NCBI RefSeq assembly: GCF_003334255.1
Contig: NZ_QOWU01000008.1
Length of the DNA stretch: 64,000 bases
DNA from: Escherichia coli
GTDB taxonomy: Bacteria; Pseudomonadota; Gammaproteobacteria; Enterobacterales; Enterobacteriaceae
Strand: one strand, 5' to 3'
Of the stretch, positions 39,001 through 42,000 are shown in pieces (the first letter of the stretch is position 1; each line of letters starts with the position of its first letter). The position numbers are program-made.

Positions 39001-42000
39001 GAAGCGCATCAGAATGTGCGGCAAGCCCGCCGTACCAAACATCAGTCCCAGACCCAGAGAGAGCGCGGAGATCGGATCTTTCACCAGCCCGCCCGGCTTC
39101 ATGATGTCGACACCTTTCGGGTGTACCGCCATCGCTTCACTGAACAGATTGTTGAAGCTAAAGCCGACGTGTTTCATCACCATAAAGGCCATAAAGCTGG
39201 CACCGAACAGCAACAGCACGGCTTTGATAATTTGCACCCAGGTGGTCGCCAGCATGCCGCCGAACAGGACGTACATCATCATCAGCACGCCGACCAGCAC
39301 CACCGCAATGTGATAGTTAAGGCCAAACAGCAGCTCGATCAGTTTACCTGCGCCCACCATCTGGGCGATAAGGTAAAGCGCCACCACCACCAGAGAACCA
39401 CAGGCCGAAAGAATACGAATCGGCCCTTGTTTCAGACGGTAAGAGGCCACATCGGCAAAGGTGTAGCGCCCCAGGTTACGCAGACGTTCGGCAATCAGGA
39501 ACAAAATGATCGGCCAGCCCACCAGGAAGCCCAGCGAGTAAATTAAGCCGTCATAGCCGGAGGTAAACACCAGCGCGGAGATCCCCAAGAATGAGGCGGC
39601 GGACATATAGTCCCCGGCAATCGCCAGCCCGTTCTGGAAGCCAGTGATATTGCCGCCTGCGGTGTAGTAGTCGCTACGAGAACGTACGCGTTTTGATGCC
39701 CAGTAGGTAATGCCGAGCGTAAACACGACGAAAATCAGGAACATAATAATCGCCTGCCAGTTCGTTGGCTGGCGCTCTACGGCCCCGCTAATAGCATCCG
39801 CGGCGTTAGCTGCGAAAGGGAGTGTGGCGGCAAGCGCCGTCAGAACTCTTTTCATGATGCTTGTACCTCATGCAGGACTTCATTATTAAGACGGTCGAAT
39901 TCGCCGTTCGCCCGCCAGATGTAGATACCGGTGAGAACAAAGGAGATCACAATCACTCCAACACCAATTGGAATACCGCGTGTGACGCTGGTGTTCGGAT
40001 TCAGCGGCGTGCCCAGCCAGCCGGGCGCGAAGGCGATCAGTAAAATAAAGCCGATATAAACTGCCAGCATAATAATCGACAGGATGGTGGCAAACCGTTG
40101 CCGTTTTTCGACTAACTCCCTGAAATGCGCATTGTCTTCTATCCGCTGATAAATAGTGCCATTCATCACAGATTCTCCAGAGGTAATGTAGGGATTGTTT
40201 TAATTCCCGCTCCCTTATGGGAGAAGGTTAACGCTCGGGTAACCCTTGCCGAATGTAGGCCGGATAAGGCGTTTACGCCGCATCCGGCAATCAATGCCTG
40301 ATGCGACGCTGTCGCGTCTTATCAGGCCTACAAACCGTTACCGACTCGCATCGGGCAATTGTGGGTTACGATGGCATCGCGATAGCCTGCTTCTCTTCAA
40401 GCAGCTTCTCGACTACGCCAGGATCGGCAAGCGTCGAGGTATCGCCCAGGTTGCTGGTATCGCCCGCCGCAATTTTGCGCAGAATACGGCGCATAATTTT
40501 GCCGGAGCGGGTTTTAGGCAGGGAGTCGGTCCAGTGCAGCACGTCTGGCGTCGCCAGCGGGCCAATCTCTTTACGCACCCAGTTGCGGACTTCTGCGTAC
40601 AGTTCTGGTGACGGTTCCTCCCCGTGATTAAGCGTGACGTAGGCGTAGATCGCCTGACCTTTAATATTGTGCGGAATACCTACTACGGCGGCTTCGGCAA
40701 TCTTCGGATGCGCCACCAGCGCCGACTCAATCTCTGCCGTCCCCAGACGGTGACCGGAGACGTTCAGCACGTCGTCCACACGCCCGGTTATCCAGTAATA
40801 GCCATCTTCATCGCGACGCGCGCCGTCGCCGCTGAAATACATATTTTTGAAGGTGGAGAAGTAGGTCTGTTCAAAACGTTCGTGATCGCCAAACAGCGTA
40901 CGCGCCTGACCCGGCCAGGAGTCGGTGATTACCAGGCTACCTTCGGTGGCCCCCTCCAGCGGGTTACCTTCGTTATCGACCAGCGCCGGTTGCACGCCGA
41001 AGAACGGACGTGTTGCCGAACCGGCTTTCAGCTCGGTAGCGCCAGGCAGCGGGGTGATCATGAAACCGCCGGTTTCGGTCTGCCACCAGGTATCGACCAC
41101 CGGACATTTCTCGTTGCCGATTTTTTTCCAGTACCACTCCCACGCTTCCGGGTTAATTGGCTCGCCCACGGAACCGAGAATGCGCAGCGACGAACGGTCG
41201 GTGCCTTCGATCGCTTTATCGCCTTCCGCCATCAGCGCGCGGATCGCCGTGGGTGCGGTATAGAGAATATTGACCTGATGCTTGTCCACCACCTGCGCCA
41301 TACGGGCAGGCGTCGGCCAGTTGGGTACGCCTTCAAACATCAGCGTGGTCGCACCGCAGGCCAGCGGGCCGTACAGCAAGTAACTGTGTCCGGTCACCCA
41401 GCCCACATCGGCGGTGCACCAGTAGATATCACCCGGATGATAATCAAAGACATATTTAAAGGTCAGCGCCGCGTACACCAGATAACCGCCGGTAGTATGC
41501 AGCACACCTTTTGGCTTACCGGTAGAACCGGAGGTGTAGAGAATAAACAGCGGATCTTCGGCGTTCATCTCTTCCGCCTGGTGCTGATCGCTCGCTTGCT
41601 CAACCAGGTCGTGCCACCACAGGTCGCGCCCTTCCTGCCAGTCAATTTTCCCGCCAGTACGCTTCAGTACCACCACATGCTCTACGCTGGTGACGTTCGG
41701 GTTTTTCAGCGCGTCATCAACGTTTTTCTTCAGCGGAATACTGCGCCCGGCACGCACACCTTCGTCGGAAGTGATCACCAGTCGTGAGTTGGAATCAATA
41801 ATGCGCCCGGCAACGGCTTCCGGCGAGAAGCCGCCGAAAATCACCGAATGCACCGCGCCAATGCGGGCGCAGGCCAGCATCGCAACCGCGGCTTCCGGCA
41901 CCATCGGCATATAAATCGCCACCACATCACCTTTTTTAATGCCCAGCTCGAGCAGGGTATTGGCGAAGCGGCAGACGTCGCGGTGCAGCTCTTTATAGCT

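Follow-up and report, generated by a model that had tools for sequence, protein, structure and literature searches.

The intercistronic spacer between acs and yjcH in Escherichia coli raises a simple question: does the pair of repetitive extragenic palindromic (REP) units that it carries set the level of the acs message apart from that of yjcH and actP, the two genes that follow it in the operon? The locus was examined in a stretch of 64,000 nucleotides from contig NZ_QOWU01000008.1 of assembly GCF_003334255.1 (the window, whose coordinates are used throughout), in which the three genes lie on the minus strand. A sequence-only reading of this stretch had placed two inverted REPs in a spacer of about 200 bp and proposed that differential mRNA decay at this site could uncouple acs from yjcH-actP. 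The element is an ordinary E. coli two-unit REP of the type 2 bacterial interspersed mosaic element (BIME-2), accompanied by a truncated third head. We give about an even chance to the view that the pair either stabilises the acs message weakly and under certain conditions or is a nearly neutral insertion, which would make it a matter of fine-tuning and not a switch. The evidence suggests that it shifts the message balance of the acetate operon slightly, if at all.

The description of the spacer was accurate. As defined by open reading frame (ORF) coordinates, it is untranslated, measures 199 nt (40167-40365, minus strand) and is identical to positions 4285214-4285412 of MG1655 NC_000913.3, a genome that the window matches (the MG1655 coordinate being the window coordinate + 4245047) and in which acs, yjcH and actP bear the same names. 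Repeat searching and reading of the sequence give two full units: GCCGGATGCGGCGTAAACGCCTTATCCGGCCTAC at 40255-40288 on the minus strand, in consensus orientation on the mRNA strand, and GCCTGATGCGACGCTGTCGCGTCTTATCAGGCCTAC at 40296-40331 on the plus strand, whose reverse complement is found in the operon mRNA. We take these to be Y-type and Z2-type units respectively, an assignment made from the consensus sequences of these types, with which the match to a REP325-derived Rfam model agrees. They face each other head to head across a 7-nt linker, AATCAAT (40289-40295). The repeat search also detected a truncated REP head, TTGCCCGATGCG (40346-40359, minus strand), which lies 7 nt past the acs stop and is one copy of a direct repeat of 12-13 nt; the two copies, at 40279-40291 and 40347-40359, are 92% identical. 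Read in the mRNA sense, the order is thus the acs stop codon, 9 nt, the truncated head GCCCGAUGCG, the Z2 unit in reverse, the linker and the Y unit in forward orientation, and a non-REP stretch of 88 nt then separates the Y unit from the yjcH start.

Both units are imperfect palindromes of about 35 nt that match GCC(G/T)GATGCG...CTTATC(A/C)GGCCTAC, and both are extragenic, lying past the stop codon of acs and ahead of the start of yjcH. Their dispersed nature is clear: the REP tail motif CTTATCMGGCCTAC, with at most one mismatch, has 15 matches in the window against 0.02 expected, and a REP-bearing query finds a median of about 30 (29-30) places per genome among 5426 complete E. coli genomes. 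The inverted Y/Z2 arrangement, the short head-to-head linker and the lack of a site for the integration host factor (IHF) are those of a BIME-2. The IHF consensus WATCAANNNNTTR has no match in the acs-yjcH spacer; therefore, the 7-nt linker is not the long IHF-binding linker of a BIME-1, and a BIME-1 with an IHF site was excluded.

Folding of the RNA indicates strong structures. The Y unit has a predicted energy of -21.3 kcal/mol (z -4.7) and the Z2 unit, in mRNA sense, of -21.9 kcal/mol (z -6.0), while the two folded together as one long hairpin reach -49.1 kcal/mol (z -8.5); the whole spacer has a z of -5.1. The hairpin of the truncated head is weak (-5.8 kcal/mol, z -0.9). These predictions allow the transcribed pair to form either two separate hairpins, each of about -21 kcal/mol, or a single one of -49 kcal/mol. 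In the proposed mechanism, the polycistronic RNA would be cut in the single-stranded A/U-rich stretch downstream of the REPs, or would end further downstream; exonucleases degrading in the 3'-to-5' direction would then stall at the REP hairpins and an acs-only RNA would outlive the yjcH-actP portion. Any such effect would be small and would depend on conditions: some 1-1.7-fold at neutral pH, rising to no more than about 3-4-fold in acid stress.

The same folded pair matches the Rfam family RF02564 (naRNA4). The match covers 40258-40328 and scores 84.1 bits on the plus strand, above the gathering score of 59.5, and 53.9 bits, below that threshold, on the minus (mRNA) strand. RF02564 also matches five other REP pairs in the window (six in total), four of them in the gltP-yjcO cluster. 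It therefore recognises Y/Z2 pairs in general, and its match indicates a type of repeat and does not point to a small RNA (sRNA) gene; a dedicated sRNA gene was rejected on this ground. The gltP-yjcO BIME cluster (50789-51388) consists of about ten alternating Y/Z2 units with a period of 113 bp and accounts for four naRNA4 matches. It corresponds to REP321 in Harris et al. 2026 (bioRxiv 10.64898/2026.03.23.713779), where overlapping Rho-binding peaks are reported. Further REP pairs lie at 140-242 (naRNA4, 67.4 bits) and 8901-8964.

A role at the level of DNA or the nucleoid, in which the BIME-2 would be a site for gyrase or DNA polymerase I or the source of a naRNA4-like HU-binding RNA, has been considered in this context and appears very improbable. 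BIME-2 elements have been reported as gyrase targets (Espeli & Boccard 1997, as cited), and the plus-strand score of 84.1 bits would suit this idea, but the model matches the five other pairs as well, that is, Y/Z2 pairs generally. Moreover, the better match is antisense to the operon, with no promoter-like site to transcribe it in the region scanned (39700-40600), and neither deletion nor overexpression of REP325 led to nucleoid compaction, HU-dependent REP-REP contacts being likewise absent (Harris et al. 2026).

What is known of REPs elsewhere makes the stabiliser a natural candidate, with precedents in Newbury 1987 and Khemici & Carpousis 2004 (as cited). REP hairpins shield 3' ends from PNPase and RNase II. 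Among 146 REP-containing tandem gene pairs, the median log ratio of upstream to downstream expression is 0.96, versus -0.09 in controls; the same study describes REP effects as context-dependent and finds no genome-wide gain in half-life (Harris et al. 2026). At the acs locus itself, mRNA ratios were taken from gene-level tables of public data. Ribosome profiling of MG1655 gives RNA ratios of acs to actP of 1.7-2.9 at pH 5.8 and 2.5-3.8 at pH 4.4, the column order having been verified in the header of the file (PMC10746267). When the dilution rate is high in chemostats of E. coli W, acs is down 2-fold while yjcH and actP are down about 4-fold (PMC6036698). The uncoupling of acs from yjcH-actP proposed from the sequence is partly supported: a modest skew under acid stress speaks for it and near-uniform mRNA at neutral pH against it; differential decay is a fair textbook reading that the locus supports weakly.

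Several observations weigh against even this modest role. At pH 7.6, the same ribosome-profiling data give RNA values in reads per kilobase per million (RPKM) of 18.6/16.1, 111.1/65.6 and 81.8/82.1 for acs/actP, hence ratios of 1.15, 1.69 and 1.00 (PMC10746267), and DESeq baseMean values of 154 for acs and 121 for actP correspond to about 1.07 per nucleotide (Harris et al. 2026). Uniform coverage across the spacer, which the sequence-only reading had named as the outcome that would tell against it, is thus nearly what is seen at gene level under standard conditions, the skew being seen at pH 5.8 and 4.4. Across MG1655 4284700-4285499, no 3' end was called by Term-seq in any of three conditions (LB at OD 0.4, LB at OD 2.0, M63 glucose), although only uniquely mapped reads were used, which may hide ends within repeats, and the operon was poorly expressed in two of the three conditions (Adams et al. 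2021). Within these same limits, RNA 3' ends at the base of a REP hairpin, as expected of a malE-malF-type stabiliser, are missing from the Term-seq lists. A strong 3' end was called instead inside acs, at MG1655 4286960 (window 41913, minus strand), 411 nt into the ORF, with a score of 116191 (Adams et al. 2021). It possibly reflects premature termination, processing or an ORF-internal RNA, and it would inflate coverage of the 5' part of acs.

The acid-stress skew is also larger in footprints than in RNA, and much of it is therefore translational. The acs:actP footprint ratio goes from 1.4-2.1 at pH 7.6 to 8-17 at pH 4.4, where the translation efficiency of acs is 2.5-9.4 versus about 1.2-1.4 for actP (PMC10746267); this points to a condition-specific translational uncoupling inside the acs operon. 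The source of the skew under stress may as well be a conserved non-REP hairpin with its A-rich tract (described below), translation, or the 3' end inside acs. Furthermore, E. coli tolerates 1, 2, 4 or 6 REPs at this site, or replacement of the core by an element resembling the enterobacterial repetitive intergenic consensus (ERIC), which fits weak selection on the exact arrangement. In the literature searched, no deletion study of the acs-yjcH REP and no paper connecting REPs with acs-yjcH-actP were found; the search gave no half-life data either, and neither acs nor actP is mentioned in the supplementary material of Dar & Sorek 2018 (PLoS Genet).

Another explanation is a Rho-dependent attenuation of transcription. 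In that case, Rho would load on the untranslated spacer RNA, the BIME would pause RNA polymerase and transcription would partly terminate before yjcH-actP. We consider this quite improbable. BIMEs can attenuate in a Rho-dependent manner (Espeli 2001, as cited), REP325 is partly Rho-dependent, and the spacer offers 199 nt of untranslated RNA including a stretch richer in C than in G (40176-40205, 8 C versus 2 G), but C does not outnumber G across the REP pair itself. In the bicyclomycin data, no Rho-termination region was called at MG1655 4284700-4285499 (Adams et al. 2021), and REP325 fragments with two hairpins are insensitive to bicyclomycin (Harris et al. 2026). In addition, the row that comes after REP318 (NusG plus) or after REP306 (NusG minus) in the listed part of the Rho-binding tables of Harris et al. 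is REP321; among these listed rows there is therefore no Rho peak at the acs-yjcH REP or within 100 bp of it.

Variation within E. coli brings a second kind of evidence, as the site is polymorphic: the number of REPs is 1, 2, 4 or 6, and some genomes have an ERIC-like element. The 131-nt allele, found in RM13752, has one Y unit, starting 10 nt past the acs stop (a gap of 9 nt), and the 132-nt allele of the E. coli representative of GTDB is a version of it. The 199-nt allele of K-12 has two units and the truncated head, and alleles of 205, 209 and 211 nt are two-unit variants. Other strains have the Z2-Y repeat 2 or 3 times in tandem: the 291-nt allele of UM146 has four units, and the 382- and 393-nt alleles of NGF1 and Nissle 1917 have six. 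Lastly, the 225-nt allele of WCHEC000837 (L005, 668-892) consists of one REP followed by an ERIC-like element that replaces the K-12 backbone. Frequencies were estimated from 59 chromosomes sampled at even spacing down the match ranking. The K-12 length accounts for about 66% of them and the 209-211-nt type for about 14%; two or three pairs are present in about 10%, the single unit in about 2% and the ERIC-type spacer in about 7%. A separate search found the ERIC-type spacer in 336 complete E. coli genomes (about 6%).

The K-12 allele differs from the single-REP allele of RM13752 by a segment of 68 nt bounded by the direct repeat TTGCC(G/C)GATGCG of 12-13 nt. This repeat is likely the footprint of REP gain or loss through slippage or recombination, by which either allele can be derived from the other. 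The ERIC-type spacers contain the palindrome CCCCAGGAGCATAG...CTATGTGACTGGGG, of which diverged copies occur elsewhere in the genome; it is presumably an ERIC, an identity assigned from the ERIC primer sequences and not from a model. Their arrangement of one REP and a palindrome …CCCAGGAGCATAG…CTATGTGACTGGGG… is that of Citrobacter and Salmonella (L011-L028), which suggests that this allele is either an old polymorphism or an imported one. The REP part of the spacer is multi-copy, whereas the 87 nt proximal to yjcH (40167-40253) are single-copy and present in 5081 of the 5426 E. coli genomes; the spacer is therefore dispersed repeat DNA laid on a unique, older backbone.

The single-unit allele also bears on the idea that a REP close to the stop codon lowers Acs translation, the hairpin stalling the terminating ribosome and triggering cleavage. 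In the stop-proximal REPs of Liang et al. 2015, the stable hairpin reportedly has to lie no more than about 15 nt from the stop codon. The 131-nt allele of RM13752, like that of the GTDB representative, has its Y unit that close (gap of 9 nt, the unit beginning 10 nt past the stop), but in K-12 the first stable stem, that of the Z2 unit, begins 39 nt past the acs stop, and the remnant hairpin nearer to it is the weak one described above. Acs footprint density is, besides, not low relative to that of ActP. For the K-12 spacer, this explanation hardly seems credible.

Comparison with other species separates the REPs from what is conserved. In 80 Enterobacterales species the genes follow one another as acs-yjcH-actP, and the acs-yjcH spacer ranges from 69 to 302 nt. 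In the K-12 spacer, a non-REP hairpin, CCUUCUCCC-AUAA-GGGAGCGGG (40206-40227, minus strand; -12.3 kcal/mol, z -3.2), is directly followed by the A-rich tract AAUUAAAACAAU (40194-40205) and then by the yjcH Shine-Dalgarno sequence GGAG (40175-40178), which an alignment of 20 species places inside a near-invariant block, CUCUGGAGAnUCUGUGAUG. In 56 of the 80 spacers, a few of them weakly, the scan finds a hairpin whose 5' arm is rich in pyrimidines and which is followed by an A-rich tail. All 7 consensus pairs of the hairpin are kept, 2 with compensatory changes, in the subset of 20 sequences from 20 species on which covariation was counted; a MAFFT alignment of 48 hairpins misregistered the stems and was not used. 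The shortest spacers, of 69-83 nt, belong to Kosakonia, Buttiauxella, Trabulsiella, Leclercia and Cedecea and contain the hairpin CCCUCUCCC-loop-GGGAGAGGG, with its pyrimidine-rich 5' arm and purine-rich 3' arm, the A-rich tract and the near-invariant block, and nothing else. The possibility that the conserved hairpin is itself a dispersed E. coli repeat was discarded, the segment being single-copy and the motif occurring once in the window. The hairpin, the A-rich tract and the ribosome-binding site of yjcH are thus the ancestral single-copy core of the spacer; the hairpin and the tract are conserved across Enterobacteriaceae, and the hairpin may be a processing or stabilising site.

On this core, each lineage has its own additions. 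In Escherichia, Citrobacter and Salmonella, REPs are added upstream of the conserved hairpin, and in Citrobacter and Salmonella ERIC-like elements lie downstream of it. Pseudocitrobacter and Silvania have repeats of the GGGTGAGGG type, and some Erwinia and Pantoea spacers have terminator-like hairpins with U-runs. A REP pair of K-12 type is found at the matching site in E. albertii and in another Escherichia species, and E. whittamii has a single unit. The acs-yjcH gap therefore holds a stable structure as a rule, to which the REPs add a layer specific to certain lineages.

This pattern gives its strength to the main rival of the weak stabiliser, namely that the REP pair is a neutral passenger, a selfish or mobile repeat lodged in a permissive untranslated gap with no measurable effect. 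Any acs:actP skew would then have its origin in the conserved hairpin with its A-rich tract, in translation or in the 3' end within acs. The variable number of REPs within E. coli, with about 6% of genomes carrying the ERIC type, and the quite different inserts of other genera at the matching place are what a passenger would leave. In the same way, mRNA is near-uniform at neutral pH with no 3' end called in the spacer, and conservation across genera falls on the hairpin at 40206-40227 and on the ribosome-binding block and not on the REPs. However, REP-containing tandem pairs show the genome-wide upstream bias already mentioned (Harris et al. 2026), and the pair persists in E. albertii. Furthermore, all the spacers inspected in the 80 species measure at least 69 nt and are stably folded, most of those read showing a strong local hairpin, which suggests that structure is wanted there. 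A passenger without effect is a real possibility, and a somewhat doubtful one.

A more ambitious interpretation is that the spacer is a natural tuning dial, in which the hairpin and the A-rich tract would form an RNA-processing module of Enterobacteriaceae and the inserts would set acs:actP ratios specific to each lineage. This is unlikely. If it were true, the inserts (1, 2, 4 or 6 REPs, or the ERIC-like element) would affect acetate scavenging among E. coli lineages. Returning to the weak stabiliser or nearly neutral insertion, the significance of the element as it stands is little: it is one of 355 REPs in the best-studied bacterial genome, and its proposed role is textbook. Its practical value is rather that of a test bed, since it combines a natural allelic series (1, 2, 4, 6 REPs and the ERIC type) with a phenotype that is easily scored, namely growth on low acetate. 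This series could serve to measure REP dose against intra-operon polarity, a relation called context-dependent and unresolved by Harris et al. 2026.

The genes on either side are well established, and the assignment of the operon made from sequence holds in full: it agrees with profile matches, with the MG1655 annotation and with the literature on cotranscription. The first gene, acs (40366-42324, minus strand; b4069), encodes acetyl-CoA synthetase (652 aa; NCBIfam NF001208, 1118 bits; TIGR02188, 1039 bits). The second, yjcH (39852-40166, minus strand; b4068 in the MG1655 annotation), encodes a DUF485 inner-membrane protein of 104 aa from an ATG start and had no NCBIfam match in the profile search. 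The third, actP (38206-39855, minus strand; b4067), encodes the cation/acetate symporter (TIGR02711, 1146 bits for a cut-off of 1099). The yjcH stop codon (TGA) and the actP start codon (ATG) do overlap by 4 nt as ATGA at 39852-39855 (tcat in plus-strand letters), as had been noted. A GTG at 40169 lengthens the yjcH ORF by one codon upstream of the ATG; the boundary of 40170 given earlier for the spacer arose because the ORF listing begins yjcH at this GTG. Cotranscription of the acs operon genes is reportedly stated in the title of Gimenez 2003. It is also stated in PMC6036698.

Other signals in the spacer were sought and set aside. A scan of 39700-40600 found neither an intrinsic terminator nor a sigma-70-like promoter in the acs-yjcH spacer, and an internal promoter or terminator there was rejected; the lone promoter-like site of the minus strand sits within yjcH. 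This site, TTGCCA-16-TATGCT (40066-40093, 9/12 matches), could drive actP alone. Sigma-70-like sites are no more numerous in the scanned region than in shuffled sequences. An upstream ORF coupled to yjcH, of 42 codons from a TTG (40166-40294) and ending in UGAUG, was also rejected because it starts in the REP linker and reads through the Y unit, because alleles differing in REP number change its frame (the repeat unit being of 91-92 nt), and because the conserved GUGAUG is better taken as two in-frame start codons. Elsewhere in the window, the MG1655 annotation includes a small ORF between acs and nrfA, ytcB (b4821, 18 codons; 42564-42620, plus strand). Rfam matches include the sRNA SraL (32880-33020, minus strand, 153 bits) and a bacterial selenocysteine insertion sequence (SECIS) element (53742-53796, minus strand, 87 bits), which is presumably the fdhF selenocysteine site.

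As regards known systems, the feature is already known in kind. The acs operon is known (Gimenez 2003, as cited) and REPs between cistrons are a class recognised by EcoCyc, E. coli K-12 having 355 annotated REP elements. Its position between REP318 (alr-tyrB) and REP321 (gltP-yjcO) would make the acs-yjcH element REP319 or REP320 of the catalogue. Compared with REP/BIME-2 elements at large, it is alike in its unit sequences, extragenic site, inversion, short linker, dispersed copies and strain-variable number; the extra truncated head by the acs stop is no essential difference. The resemblance to naRNA4 (RF02564) is limited to the repeat unit, the match lying on the antisense strand. The ERIC family, or intergenic repeat units (IRU), is met in the same spacer, where about 6% of E. 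coli, as well as Citrobacter and Salmonella, have an ERIC-like palindrome that is absent from the K-12-type window. The allelic series, the ERIC-type allele common with Citrobacter and Salmonella and the conserved hairpin are the points added here, and they are of local interest only.

Two systems allow a closer comparison. At malE-malF, an intercistronic REP is said to act as a stabiliser, its effect having reportedly been demonstrated by deletion. As in acs-yjcH, the REPs of malE-malF lie between the gene of an abundant upstream product and downstream genes of membrane proteins, and a barrier to exonucleases is proposed in both; the two differ in that the evidence at malEF comes from deletion, whereas Term-seq called no 3' end at the acs-yjcH hairpins. 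At its native locus, REP325 stabilises yjdM about 3-fold and reduces yjdN by a factor of about 10 (Harris et al. 2026). It resembles the acs-yjcH element in its Y/Z2 units placed between cotranscribed genes and in its match to RF02564, but REP325 has 12 units and a downstream effect of about 10-fold, whereas the acs-yjcH element has 2 units and goes with a gene-level skew of 1-4-fold.

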